14,367 nt of DNA, taken from a virus. Taxonomy: Duplodnaviria > Heunggongvirae > Uroviricota > Caudoviricetes. Below are positions 524-11,427 of the stretch, piece by piece. The notes under the pieces were generated by a model that was not told where the DNA came from, ran no database searches, and saw only the letters and a list, made by a program, of their open reading frames with translations. The position numbers were made by a program, and so were the translations under genes. The stretch is from the IMG/VR virus record IMGVR_UViG_2654587792_000011; one strand, given 5' to 3'. How positions within the stretch are numbered: the stretch's first letter is position 1; each line of letters begins with the position of its first letter.

Positions 524-600
524 TGGCGCGTTGTACTGGATTCGAACCAGTGACCGATTGCTTAGAAGGCAATTGCTCTGTCCGGCTGAGCTAACAACGC
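524..600 (-). tRNA. argO: tRNA-Arg, anticodon UCU (reads AGA)
   Basis: The reverse complement gives a 77-nt cloverleaf: acceptor GCGTTGT/ACAACGC, D-stem GCTC/GAGC, anticodon loop CTTCTAA, T-arm with GGTTCGAAT, 3' CCA. The symbol follows the ileZ-argN-argO convention for phage tRNA trios from memory. Confidence 0.85.
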
Positions 601-613
601 ATGATGCAGATAA

Positions 614-690
614 TGGACCGCCATCGGGGACTTGAACCCCGCGCAGCCAGCTTCGAAGGCTGGCGCTCTTTCCTGATGAGCTAATAGCGG
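614..690 (-). tRNA. argN: tRNA-Arg, anticodon UCG (reads CGA)
   Basis: The reverse complement gives a 77-nt cloverleaf: acceptor CCGCTAT/ATGGCGG (one G-U pair), D-stem GCTC/GAGC, anticodon stem CCAGC/GCTGG with loop CTTCGAA, T-loop GGGGTTCAAGTCCCC, 3' CCA. Symbol by convention only. Confidence 0.75.
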
Positions 691-697
691 TATGTGA

Positions 698-773
698 TGG
701 TGGCCCTTGCTGGATTTGAACCAGCGACCTGGCGATTATGAGTCGCTCGCTCTCACCACTGAGCTAAAGGGCC
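698..773 (-). tRNA. ileZ: tRNA-Ile2-like, anticodon CAT (lysidine type, reads AUA)
   Basis: The reverse complement GGCCCTTTAGCTCAGTGGT...ACTCATAAT...GGTTCAAATCC...GGGCCACCA is a 76-nt cloverleaf closely resembling E. coli ileX-type tRNA. Confidence 0.85.
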
Positions 774-4673: not shown

Positions 4674-6070
4674 AATAAACGCTCCGTTTTACTGCCCGAC
4701 ATGCGGTTATTGCTGTATCTGCGCGGATTGCCCGGCGTCATGGGTGTGGAAAGAACCCGGGCACTCTCCTGGTCCACAGGCAGAAAATGTCCGTTATGAA
4801 AACGCCGGTAAATGGTCCCGAGCGTGCCATTACGCTGTTTCGTGATGTTGATTTCTGCTATGCCTCTGGCCTGAGTTTCCGGGTTGTATACCTCATCCCT
4901 GTAAAGCATCAGAATGATGTCGGCATCCGCCTCGATTTCCCCGGAGTTTTTCAGGTCCGAGTTCATTGGGCGTTTATTGGGTCTGGATTCCACGCCGCGG
5001 GAGAGTTGGCTCAGAGCAATCAGCGGAAAACCGCCGGATTTTGCCAGGCTTTTAAGTCCCTTTGAGATTTCCCCCACAGCAAGGTCGTGACGCCCCGTGC
5101 TGCGGGTTTTAATCAGGCCGAGGTAATCGACCACAACCAGCGCCGTTTCCGGGTGTTTCATCCGGTGGTGCTTCGTGGTTGCACATATCTCATCAATGGT
5201 CAGGTTTGCCTGGTCCACCATCCAGATATTACGCCCCGTCATTCGTCCCACGCCCTGCGAGAAACGCGCCCAGTCTTCATCTTCAAAACGGGCAACAGAC
5301 TTAAGACGGGATACCGGCATTCCACCGGCAGCAGACACCATACGTTCACCAATCTGGATGTTCGCCATCTCCATGGTGAACAGAAGCACGCCATGCCCCT
5401 GCTCAGTCACCTTGTCGATGATGTCCAGCGCAAGTTCGGTTTTCCCCATCGAAGGACGGGCGGCAATGAATACCAGGTCTCCGGGCTCCATACCGCCCGT
5501 TTTTGCGTCCAGTTCATCAATACCGGTCATCAGCGCCCTGGATTTCTCCAGTCCCTGATTGCGGCATTCAACACGGTCGACCACTTCCGGAAGGACATCA
5601 TCAATGTGAACCGGCTGAATGACGCCCTTTCCGGTCGACAGTGAGGCCATCATGTTCTGCGCATCCTTCAGGGCATCCTCGGCTGCTTCACAGGTATACG
5701 CATCACGTAAATTCTGTAATGCTTCAGTCAGTGTTTTTTCTGCATCGCGCAGTGCGGCATTGCGCCGCAACGCTGCGACATAGTGCTCCAGTGAAGACTT
5801 CACCCAGGTTTTGCGTCCGGTGTCGGTAATCACCGGGGCAAGTTCCGGCATCTCATTGCACAGCAGTACGGGGTCAATGACGCCGGATATGCGAGCCTGT
5901 CTGCAAATCCCCGCGTAAATATCCCGGTACTGACGCACAAAAAATACATCCGCCGGAAGTGTGGCCAGAATATCCATCACTTCCGGATCGGCCCCACGCA
6001 GAAAAAACGCACCGATGACAGCGCCTTCCAGGTCATCGTTACGCCATGCCGGGGTGTTCTGGCTGGTCAT
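4670..6070 (-). CDS. Replicative DNA helicase, DnaB family
   Basis: 466 aa. Walker A ARPSMGKT, Walker B-like VVVDYLGL, overall DnaB-like RecA-fold C-terminal domain. Confidence 0.9.
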   Translation of the reverse strand: MTSQNTPAWRNDDLEGAVIGAFFLRGADPEVMDILATLPADVFFVRQYRDIYAGICRQARISGVIDPVLLCNEMPELAPVITDTGRKTWVKSSLEHYVAALRRNAALRDAEKTLTEALQNLRDAYTCEAAEDALKDAQNMMASLSTGKGVIQPVHIDDVLPEVVDRVECRNQGLEKSRALMTGIDELDAKTGGMEPGDLVFIAARPSMGKTELALDIIDKVTEQGHGVLLFTMEMANIQIGERMVSAAGGMPVSRLKSVARFEDEDWARFSQGVGRMTGRNIWMVDQANLTIDEICATTKHHRMKHPETALVVVDYLGLIKTRSTGRHDLAVGEISKGLKSLAKSGGFPLIALSQLSRGVESRPNKRPMNSDLKNSGEIEADADIILMLYRDEVYNPETQARGIAEINITKQRNGTLGTIYRRFHNGHFLPVDQESARVLSTPMTPGNPRRYSNNRMSGSKTERLF

Positions 6071-6954
6071 GCGGCAACACCTCCGATACGAGAACGGTAG
6101 CTGGGCCAGTTAAACGACAACCAGTTGCGCCCGCCATCGGTGATCCTGTCGGCAATCCGGGGACTGATGAACGCCCACAATTCTTCCGGTGAAAGGTTGC
6201 TGATCAGGATAGTTGGCAAAATACCCTCATACCGGGCATTGATAATTTCCTGCAAAATGGCCATTTCAGCCGCACTGCCAAACTGAACGCCGACTTCGTC
6301 GACAATCAGCAAATCCAGTGACGCATAATGCTCAATGACGTCATCCGCTGTTTTTTCACTGTCATTCCGCCAGCAGTTTTTCACAGCCCGGGTAAGGCGC
6401 ATCACGTCGGTGATCTCCACACTGGCCAGATAGTTACGGATGATGTGTTTTGCCATTGATACCGCCAGATGATTTTTCCCGGTACCGCAACTGCCGGTCA
6501 TAACAAGACTGGTACCGTTCTCCAGCATATCTGGCCAGTTCTCCGCATAGCGGCGACAGGCCGCAAGATTTCTGGCTGCGTCAGGATTAACCTCCAGATA
6601 ATTATCAAACTCGCAGTCCCGAAAACGCAGAGCAATTCCGGCGTTATCAGTCAGTTCTTCCGCCTTGAGGGACGACAGTTCCATGGTCAAATCACTGGCC
6701 TCAGCGATCAAGCAGTCAGGGCAGCATGAAATTTTTTCTCTGTCCTCGCCATTACGATCGATCCACACCAGTATATGCGTACGATATTTACCGTGTTTTT
6801 CGCAATATCCGCGACCTTCACGCATCAGGCAGGAACGATAAGGCCATGGCTTTTCGCCCTTCTGAGCAAATGCAATCTCTGCCCGTAACTCATCCATTCG
6901 CGCCTGTAGTCTTGTTTGTTTCTCACGTTGGTCAATCGTCATCATCGCTGTCAC
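6067..6954 (-). CDS. Helicase loader, DnaC/IstB-like AAA+ ATPase
   Basis: 295 aa. Walker A GSCGTGKNHLA, Walker B LLIVDEVG. Start overlaps the helicase gene by 4 nt. Confidence 0.85.
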   Translation of the reverse strand: MTAMMTIDQREKQTRLQARMDELRAEIAFAQKGEKPWPYRSCLMREGRGYCEKHGKYRTHILVWIDRNGEDREKISCCPDCLIAEASDLTMELSSLKAEELTDNAGIALRFRDCEFDNYLEVNPDAARNLAACRRYAENWPDMLENGTSLVMTGSCGTGKNHLAVSMAKHIIRNYLASVEITDVMRLTRAVKNCWRNDSEKTADDVIEHYASLDLLIVDEVGVQFGSAAEMAILQEIINARYEGILPTILISNLSPEELWAFISPRIADRITDGGRNWLSFNWPSYRSRIGGVAA

Positions 6955-8465: not shown

Positions 8466-8656
8466 GGACGCACCTCCGCCGTAGTTACGTATTTAACCGG
8501 GCTACCTTTCATTGAGATGGTTTCACACATCTCTGCCGCTTTCAGTTCCGCTGTTTTTCTGGATTTATAGCGACGGTGCCAGACAGATACATCCGTGCAA
8601 ACTGATACATCGTTTCTGTATTCCGTAGTGGAGATGATGATTTCGTAACTAATCAT
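8462..8656 (-). CDS. Hypothetical phage protein
   Basis: 64-aa ORF with 4-nt overlaps to both neighbours. Confidence 0.4.
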   Translation of the reverse strand: MISYEIIISTTEYRNDVSVCTDVSVWHRRYKSRKTAELKAAEMCETISMKGSPVKYVTTAEVRP

Positions 8657-9204
8657 GGGCGAACCTCCTTGTCAGAACCATTCAGCCTGGAATCAACAAG
8701 TGCAGCGCCAAAAACAGCATCACCAACACGGTCGTACAGTTTGCTAGCCAGCGGAGATTCAACGGCCTTAAGCATTGGATAAAGCTGGCTTGTCCAGATT
8801 TGATGGATTTCACGCAAATGCAGGTATACGCCTCTGGCGTTTCGTGCGACAGCTGACATATCAACCGCGTCAGCACCAGATAAATTCTTCTCCATCTGGT
8901 TAAAGGCGTTGATGTATGCCTCTTTGAACCGGGCTGCACGTTTGCCAGTAAAGCCCATAGCAAGGAACGCGAAGCCATCGCGGGTGATTTGATAGCAAGG
9001 TAGTTTGCGGCCTGTGCAATCGGTGTAATCACTGGGCTGAAAATTCAGCTCAGTGAATTCAACAGAGCACTCAAGCGTCTGGATTTTTTGAATAACGTTT
9101 TTGTGCTGCTTGCAGAAATATTCGGCAACGGCCAAAGAAGAGGTAACAGCCTTCCCATGGATAACATCAATTTTAGGGTGAGTTTGGGTAGGGGTGGTTG
9201 CCAT
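8653..9204 (-). CDS. Phage regulatory protein, Rha family
   Basis: N-terminus MATTPTQTHPKIDVIHGKAVTSSLAVAEYFCKQHKNVIQKI matches the Rha N-terminal signature. Start taken at the internal ATG 9202-9204 (GAGGA SD upstream), because the 9501 start would read through a terminator and a repeat-rich region. Confidence 0.65.
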   Translation of the reverse strand: MATTPTQTHPKIDVIHGKAVTSSLAVAEYFCKQHKNVIQKIQTLECSVEFTELNFQPSDYTDCTGRKLPCYQITRDGFAFLAMGFTGKRAARFKEAYINAFNQMEKNLSGADAVDMSAVARNARGVYLHLREIHQIWTSQLYPMLKAVESPLASKLYDRVGDAVFGAALVDSRLNGSDKEVRP

Positions 9205-9367
9205 AGTGACATCCTCATGTGCGAATTTTGAAAACTCACCACATGGGACGCCAATCACAGAGGTGGTGAGACGTACAGGGTTGGCGTAACCGGTCGCACA
9301 TGACCCCGGCGCATCTTTCGATGCCCCTGCACGCCCCACCATAATTTGGATGTGAGGAAACGTGCGC

Positions 9368-9389
9368 AAAAAAACCGCTGAAGCGCGGT
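9368..9389 (-). terminator. Intrinsic terminator inside the early-right operon (tR1-like)
   Basis: On the minus strand: stem ACCGC/GCGGU with 6-nt loop, followed by a U-run (complement of A368-A373 on plus). Confidence 0.45.
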
Positions 9390-9488
9390 TATGCGCATGT
9401 GCGAATTTCAGGACGCCAATCCCGGCACCCGCTTTATAAGGTGCGGAGACAGTGTAACGTCCCGAAATTGCAGAATCAATATTTGGTC

Positions 9489-9518
9489 TTGAAATGATCA
9501 TATAGCTGCTGATATCTT
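9489..9518 (+). promoter_or_regulatory. Candidate sigma70 promoter for a short plus-strand antisense RNA
   Basis: TTGAAA (9489-9494), 18-nt spacer, TG-extended TATCTT (9513-9518). Confidence 0.3.
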
Positions 9519-9524
9519 TAGAAC

Positions 9525-9610
9525 TGTTCTTGGATGTTTCGGAGCCGTTTTATGCGAAACAGCTCCCCGTTATTGATGTTGAGTGAGCCGGGTTACTCCC
9601 GGCTTTTTTT
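9525..9610 (+). ncRNA. Candidate OOP-like antisense small RNA, about 85 nt
   Basis: Runs from the predicted start after the 9489-9518 promoter to the intrinsic terminator at 9587-9610. Antisense to the 3' UTR of the minus-strand gene 9610-10317. No plus-strand ORF. Confidence 0.3.
9587..9610 (+). terminator. Intrinsic terminator on the plus strand
   Basis: Stem GCCGGG (9587-9592) / CCCGGC (9598-9603), loop TTACT, then seven T (9604-9610). Abuts the stop codon of the convergent minus-strand gene. Confidence 0.55.
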
Positions 9611-10604: not shown

Positions 10605-10737
10605 AACAAAGCACCAATATTAACTTTATAAATCAAGAATACATCAAGTTTAAATTAACATGCAAATTACAAAAGGATCGAATACACTAAAATCAAGTAA
10701 AGATTTATCCTTGTAAAGAAACCCACAGGATTTGGTC
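10605..10737. promoter_or_regulatory. Divergent promoter/operator region between the cro-like and cI genes (oR/pR/pRM-like)
   Basis: AT-rich. ATCAAG occurs three times (10632, 10643, 10692) and GTAAAGA twice (10697, 10713). Individual operators are not resolved. Confidence 0.5.
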
Positions 10738-11427
10738 ATGAAGAACGTCAAAAACACGGAAAATCGAATAGCCGCGATGCTGAAAGCAAAAGGATGGACT
10801 CAGGCTCAACTGGCCCGCAAGTTAGGTGTGAGTGCGCAATCAGTGCAGTACTGGACAACAGGAAAAACATTTCCACGGAGTGATAAGCTCGCGCATTTAT
10901 CAGAGATTAGCGGTTATCCACAATCCTGGTTCTTAGGTGAAGACTCCTCACCAACCTTTTCCTCGCAAGAGAAACACCAGACAAGAACAGATAGCGTCGT
11001 ATTTAATGTCCTTGATGTTGAGTTTAGTTGCGGTGATGGAACTCATGTCCGTGGTGACTTGATAGATGTAGTGCGCTCAATAGAACTTGATCCTGAATAT
11101 GCCCGACGTCTTGTTGGAAATCGGGCATTCAAAAATATAGAAATAGGTAACGCCAGAGGAGACAGTATGGCTCCCACAATCTCACCTGGCGACCTTCTTT
11201 TTCTTGATAAGACAGTAACTTATTTTGATGGCGATGGTATTTATGCATTTTGTTTTGATGGAGAATGCTACGTGAAAAGGCTTCAAAAAATTGGAAGCAA
11301 AATCATGGTGTTATCTGATAACCCCAATTATCAACCATGGAGCATCGAAAAAGAGGGGTTAGCTCTGCTTTATATCCAGTCTAAAGTGATCTCATCAGTA
11401 CCATTCAACATAAACAGATTTGGTTAG
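10738..11427 (+). CDS. cI: CI-type prophage repressor (HTH_XRE plus S24 LexA-like peptidase)
   Basis: N-terminal HTH GWTQAQLARKLGVSAQSVQYW; C-terminal peptidase motifs GDSMAPT (Ser) and YVKRL (Lys). ATG 10738 with AGGA SD is preferred over the track's TTG at 10732. Confidence 0.85.
   Translation: MKNVKNTENRIAAMLKAKGWTQAQLARKLGVSAQSVQYWTTGKTFPRSDKLAHLSEISGYPQSWFLGEDSSPTFSSQEKHQTRTDSVVFNVLDVEFSCGDGTHVRGDLIDVVRSIELDPEYARRLVGNRAFKNIEIGNARGDSMAPTISPGDLLFLDKTVTYFDGDGIYAFCFDGECYVKRLQKIGSKIMVLSDNPNYQPWSIEKEGLALLYIQSKVISSVPFNINRFG

Follow-up and report, generated by a model that had tools for sequence, protein, structure and literature searches.

A putative c4/IsrK-type riboregulatory unit upstream of a Rha-family gene in a lambdoid prophage

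Immunity switches built around small antisense RNAs have been known from the phages P1, P4, and Gifsy-1 for decades. In P1 and P4, RNase P releases the c4 or CI RNA, about 77 nt in its mature form, from a longer transcript, and the immunity factor of P4 is the CI RNA and not a protein. For Gifsy-1, the promoter and the transcript start of isrK were mapped experimentally, some transcripts were found to read through the isrK terminator, and compensatory mutations (G28A/C162U and G31A/C159U) were described; the authors could not assign a role to STnc1160, the c4 homologue (PMC4825925). Salmonella lysogens express both IsrK and STnc1160 at high levels (PMC7067206).

Here, we analyzed a 14,367-nt stretch of phage DNA (the window). 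According to our analysis, the minus-strand region 9202-9479 is very probably a riboregulatory unit of the P1 immI, P4 immunity, and Gifsy-1 isrK type, which gates a Rha-family gene (Table 1). It is a known kind of phage immunity switch, of low novelty, and it is unannotated in RefSeq. A previous interpretation made from the letters of the window (the sequence-only reading) had regarded this stretch as regulatory and not as the N-terminus of Rha, and our analysis supports that view.

Table 1. Coordinates of the features in and around the proposed riboregulatory unit (positions in the window; for sites on the minus strand, read 5' to 3').
Feature	Position	Strand	Remarks
Rha-family regulatory gene, 183 aa	8653..9204	-	Pfam Phage_pRha, residues 21-106, E = 1e-32
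Rha leader	9202..9257	-	a2, b2, Shine-Dalgarno sequence, and AUG; complementarity to c4
Shine-Dalgarno sequence GAGGA	9216-9212	-	7 nt upstream of AUG 9204-9202
b2 UCGCACAUGA	9224-9215	-	Rha leader; overlaps GAGGA by 2 nt
a2 UUGGCGU	9254-9248	-	Rha leader
c4/CI-type antisense RNA	9259..9346	-	Rfam C4, RF01695
a' ACGCCAA	9287-9281	-	single-stranded joint of c4, 3' of the hairpins
b' UCAUGUGCGA	9303-9294	-	loop of c4 hairpin 2
Intrinsic terminator of the IsrK-like RNA	9366..9390	-	stem 9390-9373, seven U to 9366; terminator scan
IsrK-like small RNA/leader	9368..9444	-	Rfam isrK, RF01394; two 5' hairpins; a1 and b1
b1 UCGCACAUG	9404-9396	-	within the IsrK-like RNA
a1 UUGGCGU	9419-9413	-	within the IsrK-like RNA
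Predicted sigma-70-type promoter of the IsrK-like RNA	9451..9479	-	-35 TTGATT 9479-9474, 17-nt spacer, -10 TACACT 9456-9451
N-terminal extension of the annotated 282-aa ORF	9205..9501	-	RefSeq WP_000587264.1, "Ash" domain
Segment between the Roi-like gene stop and the IsrK promoter	9483..9609	+	promoter-like site, hairpin, terminator
Promoter-like site	9489-9518	+	within 9483-9609
Hairpin	9541-9566	+	within 9483-9609
Intrinsic terminator	9585-9605	+	followed by seven T; within 9483-9609

Both halves of a direct repeat, the CATGTG/CACATG inverted repeat, and a minus-strand terminator are present where they had been reported. The half ATGTGCGAATTT occurs at 9217-9228 and 9397-9408, and the half GGACGCCAATC occurs at 9246-9256 and 9411-9421. 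In the upstream copy, the halves stand 2 nt (CA) apart; the other copy is indeed split, but by 17 nt (TGAAAACTCACCACATG) and not by the 16 nt given previously. The arms of the inverted repeat lie at 9216-9221 (CATGTG) and 9240-9245 (CACATG). The key to the region is an element absent from the sequence-only reading: between the two direct copies, each repeat half occurs a third time as its reverse complement. The sequence CATGTGCGA has three copies in the whole window, at 9216 and 9396 on the plus strand and at 9294-9302 on the other strand, compared with a mean of 0.18 copies in shuffled sequences, and three copies appeared in 0 of 200 shuffles. These copies are the sites b2, b1, and b' (opposite strand), respectively, and there are none elsewhere; the labels a1/b1/a2/b2/a'/b' follow the phage P1 record. 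The exact 9-mer GACGCCAAT is confined to the two repeat copies.

The IsrK-like RNA matched the full Rfam isrK model with 62.3 bits (cut-off 50; 9444 to 9368 on the minus strand), and the model places its 3' end at 9368. The overlapping c4-a1b1 model (RF03163) gave 23.9 bits, which is under its cut-off of 46.7, and the assignment to the IsrK family rests, therefore, on the isrK model. In 23 relatives, hairpins 1 and 2 were fully (100%) paired, and their pairs included changes on both sides. The transcript is predicted to start at about G9444, and its promoter aligns with the TTGACA-N17-TATATT promoter preceding Gifsy-1 isrK. The promoter-like hexamers and the terminator are both present as predicted elements aligning with those of Gifsy-1; the promoter at 9479-9451 was not among the sites listed by a simple consensus promoter scan. 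Similarity to many other phages extends from 9482-9480, just upstream of the -35 hexamer, through 9262, the 3' end of c4. The minus-strand terminator appears to be real, as it was recovered by the terminator scan and a hairpin with a T-run occupies the same position in most related loci. Its proposed likeness to lambda tR1 was not borne out: it forms the 3' end of the IsrK-like RNA, which holds the upstream target copy.

The c4/CI-type antisense RNA matched positions 1-87 of the 87 in the Rfam C4 model with 75.1 bits (cut-off 45; 9346 to 9259). From the alignment to the P1 c4 ends, which were taken from the P1 record, a mature RNA of 79 nt (9340 to 9262) is predicted. The computed fold (-46.5 kcal/mol, z = -5.1) and the Rfam alignment agree on a long closing stem, two hairpins, b' in the loop of hairpin 2, and a' in the 3' joint. 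In 23 relatives, 98.2% of the cells were paired and 13 pairs had changes on both sides.

The a1/b1 and a2/b2 sites are exactly complementary to the joint (a') and the loop (b') of c4, with duplex energies of -16.6 kcal/mol for b':b2, -16.2 for b':b1, -16.6 for a':a1, and -10.4 for a':a2. Co-variation was assessed in 23 aligned relatives with different loops, collected with a search pattern that fixed a', so that the a-site columns are invariant. In these loci, b1:b' was 93.6% paired, with both sides changed in 9 of 9 pairs, and b':b2 was 86.7% paired, with both sides changed in 9 of 10. The covariation score for b1:b' and the invariant a1:a' helix together was 0.56, compared with 0.14 in shuffles and at most 0.10 in slid controls. 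The c4 loop co-varies with both target copies, and the earlier suggestion that the copies of the repeat function together is supported.

The same relationship was seen among 39 distinct loops from IMG/VR loci, where the complement of the loop was far commoner in the flanks of its own locus (longest match, mean of 7.2 nt upstream and 8.2 nt downstream) than in the flanks of other loci (5.0 and 4.8 nt). These matches lie at fixed distances and usually end in the GGA of the Shine-Dalgarno sequence. The a sites co-vary between the window and P4 (ACGCCAA/UUGGCGU vs. UUCUCAC/GUGAGAA). The duplex of c4 with IsrK was better than shuffles (1/300), and the duplex of the whole c4 core with the Rha leader was not better than with shuffled targets (44/300); because of the latter, our case rests on the exact matches and the co-variation.

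In the Rha leader, a hairpin is predicted (-26.3 kcal/mol, z = -4.4) in which the a2 side pairs with the Shine-Dalgarno region and the CATGTG/CACATG inverted repeat forms the middle. Relatives mostly retain the outer part of this hairpin, for which variation provides weak evidence. A conserved loop copy between a2 and b2 was considered as the source of CATGTG and rejected: own and cross-locus matches were 4.2 and 3.9 nt. Since these values are alike, CATGTG is a feature of the window's copy and not of the family.

The match to the Rha family profile TIGR02681 begins at residue 10 of the protein translated from ATG 9204, and on sequence grounds we favor this start. A start at 9501 is, as had been argued before, unlikely, given that the IsrK-type promoter and the transcript start at about 9444 lie downstream of it and ATG 9501 has no Shine-Dalgarno sequence. 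In other members of the group, the cargo position is taken by Rha, by Bro-N, by ORF6N plus P22 antirepressor C-terminal domains, or by ORFs of 62-88 aa. No similarity was detectable between AnrP of Gifsy-1 and the window's Rha, and for this reason we infer a putative antirepressor function of Rha from its position.

Taken together with the homologues, which suggest how the RNA is processed, in which direction regulation acts, and what role Rha plays, these data lead us to propose the following scheme. The unit would comprise, from 5' to 3', the promoter, the IsrK-like RNA (a1, b1), the terminator, the c4/CI-type RNA (b', a'), and finally the Rha leader with a2 and b2. Transcription starting at the IsrK promoter, and probably also that of the early operon upstream, would either stop at the terminator, yielding a 77-nt IsrK-like RNA, or read through it, and c4 would be cut out of the read-through RNA, as by RNase P in P1 and P4. 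The a' and b' sites of c4 would then pair with a2 and b2 and block the Rha ribosome-binding site, already partly closed by the leader hairpin; therefore, Rha would not be made in the lysogen. The IsrK-like RNA, having the same sites, would compete for c4, and in cis it may pair with the c4 region of the long RNA. As shown for Gifsy-1, it would thereby relieve the block, so that the antirepressor-like cargo is made. Whether IsrK is seen as an activator or a decoy, the presumed direction of its action comes from one Salmonella study.

Other explanations of the repeats have to be weighed against RNA pairing. The sequence-only reading had envisaged an antitermination or activator-binding site, at which a protein, either an activator or an N-like antiterminator, would bind the repeats in DNA or RNA and control read-through of a tR1-like terminator. 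The repeats do flank a real intrinsic terminator within the early operon, with a cro-like/Roi-like gene pair on one side and the replication genes on the other. However, the reverse-complement third copy of each half sits in a structured RNA between them, no boxA-like sequence was found in 9205-9609, and, from relative to relative, the three copies change together in the manner of Watson-Crick partners. Such co-variation is predicted by RNA-RNA pairing and not by a shared protein site, which makes a protein site very improbable; the repeats are instead RNA target sites of the c4/CI-type RNA encoded at 9346 to 9259. We give practically no credence to a chance match or a functionless remnant of a local duplication, for which nothing speaks beyond the general frequency of short repeats. 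Comparison with other phages already refutes this explanation, as dozens of unrelated phage contigs show the arrangement built from different sequences; in addition, the shuffles never produced three copies of the 9-mer.

Another explanation holds that the stretch codes for protein; the 282-aa ORF (9501 to 8653) would then be a genuine Ash-Rha fusion and the RNA matches a coincidence. RefSeq lists this open frame as a single CDS, residues 16-110 of its product match Pfam Phage_ASH (PF10554; E = 3e-14, 53.8 bits vs. a cut-off of 26), and many relatives have a Shine-Dalgarno sequence and an ATG upstream of isrK in this frame. Of 78 diverged loci, all 78 have this frame open across IsrK and the spacer (expectation, 41%), and 74 have it open over the interval between AUG 9342 and b2 (expectation, 42%). 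The variable spacers contain no stop among 405 in-phase codons, compared with 9 in 399 and 9 in 376 when read out of phase. In Gifsy-1, anrP expression needs the orf45 part in translated form (PMC4825925). Nevertheless, the PF10554 profile also matches the historical P4 "cI ORF," which overlaps the CI RNA gene; the match tracks the RNA genes and is no proof of a protein. The nucleotide diversity over IsrK and c4 has no clear codon periodicity, and the third codon position is the one that varies least in IsrK; the downstream control for periodicity was unusable because the cargo genes are not homologous. In addition, the variation is compensatory at the RNA level, the peptides encoded by the spacer are not conserved, the ORF contains both a promoter and an intrinsic terminator, no Shine-Dalgarno sequence precedes ATG 9501, and the P1 frame closes 14 codons past the AUG in c4. 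A genuine fusion protein thus appears improbable. The extension of the 282-aa ORF is most likely an over-annotation, and its "Ash" domain is the conceptual translation of the c4/IsrK RNA genes.

What an RNA-only model leaves unexplained is the frame kept open over these genes, which reaches from a point preceding the IsrK promoter across the terminator, the spacer, and c4 and, in this prophage, on into Rha. The sub-frame from AUG 9342 corresponds to Gifsy-1 orf45 but meets no stop ahead of ATG 9204 and continues in frame into Rha; a short orf45-type ORF ending at the cargo start, as in translational coupling, was not found at this locus. It is conceivable, if rather unlikely, that in the lambdoid/IsrK branch selection keeps the frame open and that early-operon ribosomes translate through IsrK and c4. 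These ribosomes would melt the terminator and the c4 fold and bypass the antisense block, and the product would be an N-terminally extended Rha of 229 or 282 aa. In that case, "Ash" would represent a translated override within the riboregulator, neither a plain protein nor a plain mis-annotation.

The plus strand of the segment 9483-9609 carries elements of its own. Phage records are at least 98.6% identical over it, and no Rfam family matches it. The only diverged copies found, in two E. coli prophages, retain the -35, the extended -10, and the terminator, with the middle hairpin replaced by another hairpin. The part at 9525-9609 may encode a small RNA of some 85 nt on the plus strand, whose direction diverges from that of the IsrK promoter.

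The recognition of the c4/IsrK switch matters mostly for annotation. In RefSeq and GenBank, neither this prophage nor its relatives have an RNA feature recorded at the locus, and the translated RNA genes are labeled as "ash family protein" or as the N-terminus of the 282-aa Rha; a paper on Stx-phage regulatory regions refers to "Rha/Ash domain proteins" of unknown function (PMC8951638). If such loci are read as c4/IsrK switches, the likely Rha start shifts to 9204, and many Stx and other lambdoid prophages would have a second, RNA-based immunity layer with many specificities. Our sample contained at least 39 distinct loop sequences.

Among the described systems, P4 (seqA, CI RNA/seqB, and seqC) shares the RNA components: the isrK model matches the seqA region and terminator, and the C4 model matches the CI RNA (seqB). 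The IsrK-like RNA of the window is the equivalent of P4 seqA and of the P1 a1/b1 leader. Both the a and b sites of P4 are complementary, with sequences different from those of the window, and the P4 ORF overlapping the CI RNA belongs to the same Pfam "Ash" family as the window's ORF. P4 differs in its longer seqA-CI spacing and in that its RNA makes transcription of the replication operon terminate prematurely (PMC4825925) and does not gate an antirepressor.

In the isrK-orf45-anrP region of Gifsy-1, the IsrK RNA (RF01394) has its own promoter and terminator, the counterparts of those predicted here; the C4 model matches the orf45/STnc1160 region (69 bits), and the start codon of orf45 is the AUG within the 5' end of c4. 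The pairs G28-C162 and G31-C159, proven by experiment, map to a1:a'. The loop and b sites differ (CGGUGAU in Gifsy-1 vs. CAUGUGCGA here), as does the position of the module, which follows Q in Gifsy-1 and lies in the early operon after the Roi-like gene in the window. Furthermore, orf45 stops at an ATGA overlap with anrP, whereas here the frame enters Rha, a cargo not detectably homologous to AnrP, without a stop.

The immI region of P1/P7, in which c4 (RF01695) controls icd-ant, belongs to a plasmid prophage with a C1 operator at the promoter, whereas the window comes from a lambdoid prophage with a CI/Cro switch. P1 has icd, while here no icd-like small ORF lies between c4 and the cargo and b2 abuts the Rha Shine-Dalgarno sequence; the frame from the c4 AUG, open here, is closed after 14 codons in P1. 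The site sequences also differ, and therefore the specificity does as well. The order of elements is nevertheless the same, with a promoter, a1, b1, a hairpin with a T-run, c4, a2, b2 over the Shine-Dalgarno sequence, and the first gene. In the curated P1 record (a1, b1, c4, a2, b2, icd), the gaps are 7 and 22 nt, compared with 8 and 23 nt here. The c4 RNAs share the same fold, with b' in the hairpin-2 loop and a' in the joint, and the cargo of both units appears to be of the antirepressor type.

According to the curated Rfam models, the region 9205–9609, upstream of the minus-strand Rha gene, contains matches to the C4 antisense RNA and to IsrK, both on the minus strand. It belongs, as an ordinary example, to a curated class that has been studied experimentally, in which a c4/CI antisense RNA, of the type found in P1 and P4, is combined with target leaders of the IsrK/seqA type. 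The c4 RNA folds strongly (−46.5 kcal/mol, z = −5.1), with two hairpins, a single-stranded joint and a long stem that closes the structure. The halves of the direct repeat noted in the sequence-only reading are the target sites matching the two recognition sequences of c4, a' and b' (labels follow the curated P1 record).

Features of the window (coordinates of minus-strand RNA elements run 5' to 3')
Feature	Coordinates	Strand	Sequence	Remark
C4 antisense RNA	9346->9259	-		Rfam, 75.1 bits (cut-off 45), full-length match
IsrK RNA	9444->9368	-		Rfam, 62.3 bits (cut-off 50)
b'	9303->9294		UCAUGUGCGA	loop of c4 hairpin 2
a'	9287->9281		ACGCCAA	c4 single-stranded joint
a1	9419->9413		UUGGCGU	within IsrK-like RNA
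b1	9404->9396		UCGCACAUG	within IsrK-like RNA
a2	9254->9248		UUGGCGU	Rha leader
b2	9224->9215		UCGCACAUGA	Rha leader
Rha-family gene	8653-9204	-		downstream of RNA module
Roi-like Rha-family regulator, 235 aa	9610-10317	-		annotated Roi in PhiR49_2
cro-like gene	10604-10314	-		early operon
CI-like repressor	10732-11427	+		opposite strand to the early genes
Promoter-like site	9489-9518	+	TTGAAA, 18-nt spacer, TGaTATCTT	from sequence
Hairpin	9541-9566	+		predicted
Intrinsic terminator	9585-9605	+		predicted, of good quality; plus seven T, ending at stop codon of Roi-like gene
STnc100 small RNA and three tRNA genes	257-447, 527-773	-		far end of window; STnc100 139 bits

Both repeat halves were confirmed, ATGTGCGAATTT at 9217 and 9397 and GGACGCCAATC at 9246 and 9411, as was their split and contiguous arrangement, the halves being 17 nt apart in the first copy and 2 nt apart in the second. 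The reported inverted repeat (CATGTG 9216–9221, CACATG 9240–9245) and minus-strand terminator (hairpin 9390–9373, then seven T) were likewise found. The 14.4 kb contain just three copies of the 9-mer CATGTGCGA, one in each repeat copy and one on the opposite strand between them (9294–9302), a number reached by 0/200 shuffles. The duplex energies are −16.6 kcal/mol for b':b2, −16.2 for b':b1, −16.6 for a':a1 and −10.4 for a':a2. Site b2 overlaps the Shine-Dalgarno sequence GAGGA (9216–9212), which lies 7 nt before the AUG at 9204.

The pairing was examined in IMG/VR with a pattern of the conserved c4 parts in which the loop was free and a' fixed. Among the 120 stretches retrieved, 41 distinct loop sequences were present, of which 39 had full flanks. 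For these 39, the longest complement of a loop averaged 7.2 nt in its own upstream flank and 8.2 nt in its own downstream flank, against 5.0 and 4.8 nt in the flanks of other loci. These complements keep a fixed spacing, roughly 94 nt upstream and roughly 53 nt downstream, and the GGA of a Shine-Dalgarno sequence usually forms the end of the downstream one. In an alignment of 23 loci, Gifsy-1 included, 93.6% of the cells are paired for b1:b' and 86.7% for b':b2, with 9/9 and 9/10 pairs, respectively, changed on both sides; the corresponding values are 98.2% and 13 pairs for the internal c4 fold, and 100% and 7 pairs (5 and 2) for IsrK hairpins 1 and 2. The covariation score of b1:b' together with the invariant a1:a' helix is 0.56 versus 0.14 in shuffles (0/500 reach 0.56) and at most 0.10 in slid controls. 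The a sites had no freedom to vary in the IMG/VR sample; they differ in a complementary manner between the window (ACGCCAA/UUGGCGU) and P4 (UUCUCAC/GUGAGAA). This complementary variation of the loop and the a sites fits the prediction of RNA–RNA recognition, and the pattern differs from that predicted for a shared protein-binding site, one of the roles suggested for the repeats in the sequence-only reading.

Our analysis establishes the parts of the switch, their complementarity and their co-variation. By analogy with P1, P4 and Gifsy-1, c4 would be processed out of a read-through RNA and would pair with a2 and b2, blocking the Rha ribosome-binding site, and the IsrK-like RNA, with the same sites, would relieve the block by pairing, in cis or in trans, with the c4 region. 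The Rha leader also folds on itself (hairpin 9257–9202, −26.3 kcal/mol, z = −4.4), pairing the a2 side to the Shine-Dalgarno region, with CATGTG/CACATG as its middle; the outer part of this hairpin is found again in relatives, with weak support from variation. In other members the position of Rha is occupied by Rha, Bro-N, ORF6N plus P22-antirepressor C-terminal domains, or ORFs of 62–88 aa, a range compatible with a switch that may gate antirepressor-type or icd-like genes. The role of Rha itself is one that we infer, because the window Rha has no homology to AnrP of Gifsy-1.

In RefSeq, 9501->8653 is a single 282-aa protein, and in relatives the corresponding position carries an “ash family protein”, which would make 9501–9205 the coding sequence of a protein N-terminus. 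Residues 16–110 of this ORF (window 9172–9456, minus strand) indeed match Pfam PF10554. However, PF10554 also matches the historical P4 “cI ORF” (8584–8168 of the P4 sequence L123), which overlaps the CI RNA, so the Ash match is what results when IsrK and c4 are translated conceptually. One paper equates P4 epsilon with Ash and PF10554, but the Pfam family of that protein is another one, PF25738. Further points against coding are the promoter and the terminator inside the ORF, the lack of a Shine-Dalgarno sequence at ATG 9501, the lack of clear codon periodicity, compensatory variation at the RNA level, and a Rha profile that sets in at residue 10 when the protein is read from 9204. We share the earlier view that a start at 9501 is unlikely and consider 9204 the likely one.

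The RNA-only model nevertheless leaves an open frame unexplained. The frame of the 282-aa ORF stays open across IsrK and its terminator, the spacer and c4 in nearly all diverged relatives. It is open through IsrK and the spacer in 78/78 diverged loci (41% expected with independent columns), and from AUG 9342 to b2 in 74/78 (42% expected). The highly variable spacers hold 0/405 in-phase stop codons versus 9/399 and 9/376 out of phase; counted by group, the values are 0/16 in phase versus 6/16 and 5/16. The significance of these numbers is overstated, since the sequences are interrelated. Peptides encoded by the spacers showed no conservation among relatives. In many relatives, an ATG with a Shine-Dalgarno sequence precedes isrK in this frame. 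In P1 the corresponding frame is closed after 14 codons, and orf45 of Gifsy-1 (1298–1435 of sequence L126) stops at an ATGA overlap with anrP; unlike in Gifsy-1, the orf45-like frame of the window (9202–9342) continues without a stop and in phase to the Rha ATG at 9204. A 229-aa Rha with an N-terminal extension is thus possible from the reading frame, and translation across the RNA genes may be relevant in the branch of the window.

A prophage of E. coli O111:H8 strain 8E matches the window with 100% identity, and phage PhiR49_2 shares 99% identity with it. The early genes of the window, on the minus strand, follow the order cro-like, Roi-like, gap, Rha-family, small ORFs and replication genes. 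The RNA module lies between two Rha-related regulators; the Roi-like protein matches Phage_pRha weakly (25.6 bits, below the cut-off of 29.9). STnc100 and tRNA genes 3' of the late-gene regulator are common in Stx-type lambdoid prophages. Similarity to other phages extends from 9482–9480, just upstream of the −35 element, to 9262, the predicted 3' end of c4, which indicates that the RNA unit moves as a mosaic module. The segment 9483–9609 is a separate mosaic piece linked to the Roi-like gene. It has no Rfam family match, and in two diverged E. coli prophages its promoter elements and terminator are kept, with the middle hairpin swapped for another. A small RNA of some 85 nt, perhaps oop-like and running divergently from the IsrK promoter, may be encoded in this segment.

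The switch is without annotation in public records; its novelty is low, and its worth lies in the correction of annotation. The layout of one contiguous and one split copy is a family trait: the a–b gaps measure 8 and 23 nt in the window, close to the 7 and 22 nt of P1. The curated P1 record lists promoters P1c4 and P2c4, then a1, b1, c4 (77 nt), a2 and b2, followed by icd and ant1/ant2, and notes for b2 “repression of icd ant translation”; the P1 sequence has a hairpin and five T between b1 and c4. In P4, the C4 model matches the CI RNA (74.9 bits) and the isrK model matches the seqA region with its terminator (60.8 bits); the structural resemblance of IsrK to seqA has been pointed out (PMC4825925). 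In one viral contig (L072, IMGVR_UViG_2541047934_000020), two c4-type hairpin matches (5323–5355 and 6189–6221) lie about 870 nt apart and may represent two switches in tandem. In Gifsy-1, isrK (L126 1192–1268) is followed by a C4 match (1294–1377, 69 bits) that corresponds to the orf45/STnc1160 region of Hershko-Shalev et al. (2016; PMC4825925); the first AUG of orf45 (A107) is the AUG in the c4 5' end, and the published compensatory pairs G28-C162 and G31-C159 are located in a1:a'. There, anrP is driven by the IsrK promoter, a fraction of transcripts passes the IsrK terminator by read-through, STnc1160 is a stable processed RNA derived from the read-through transcript, and short IsrK turns on translation in trans (PMC4825925). 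Salmonella lysogens express both IsrK and STnc1160 at high levels (PMC7067206). Within this class, the window copy of the c4/IsrK switch has a specificity sequence of its own.
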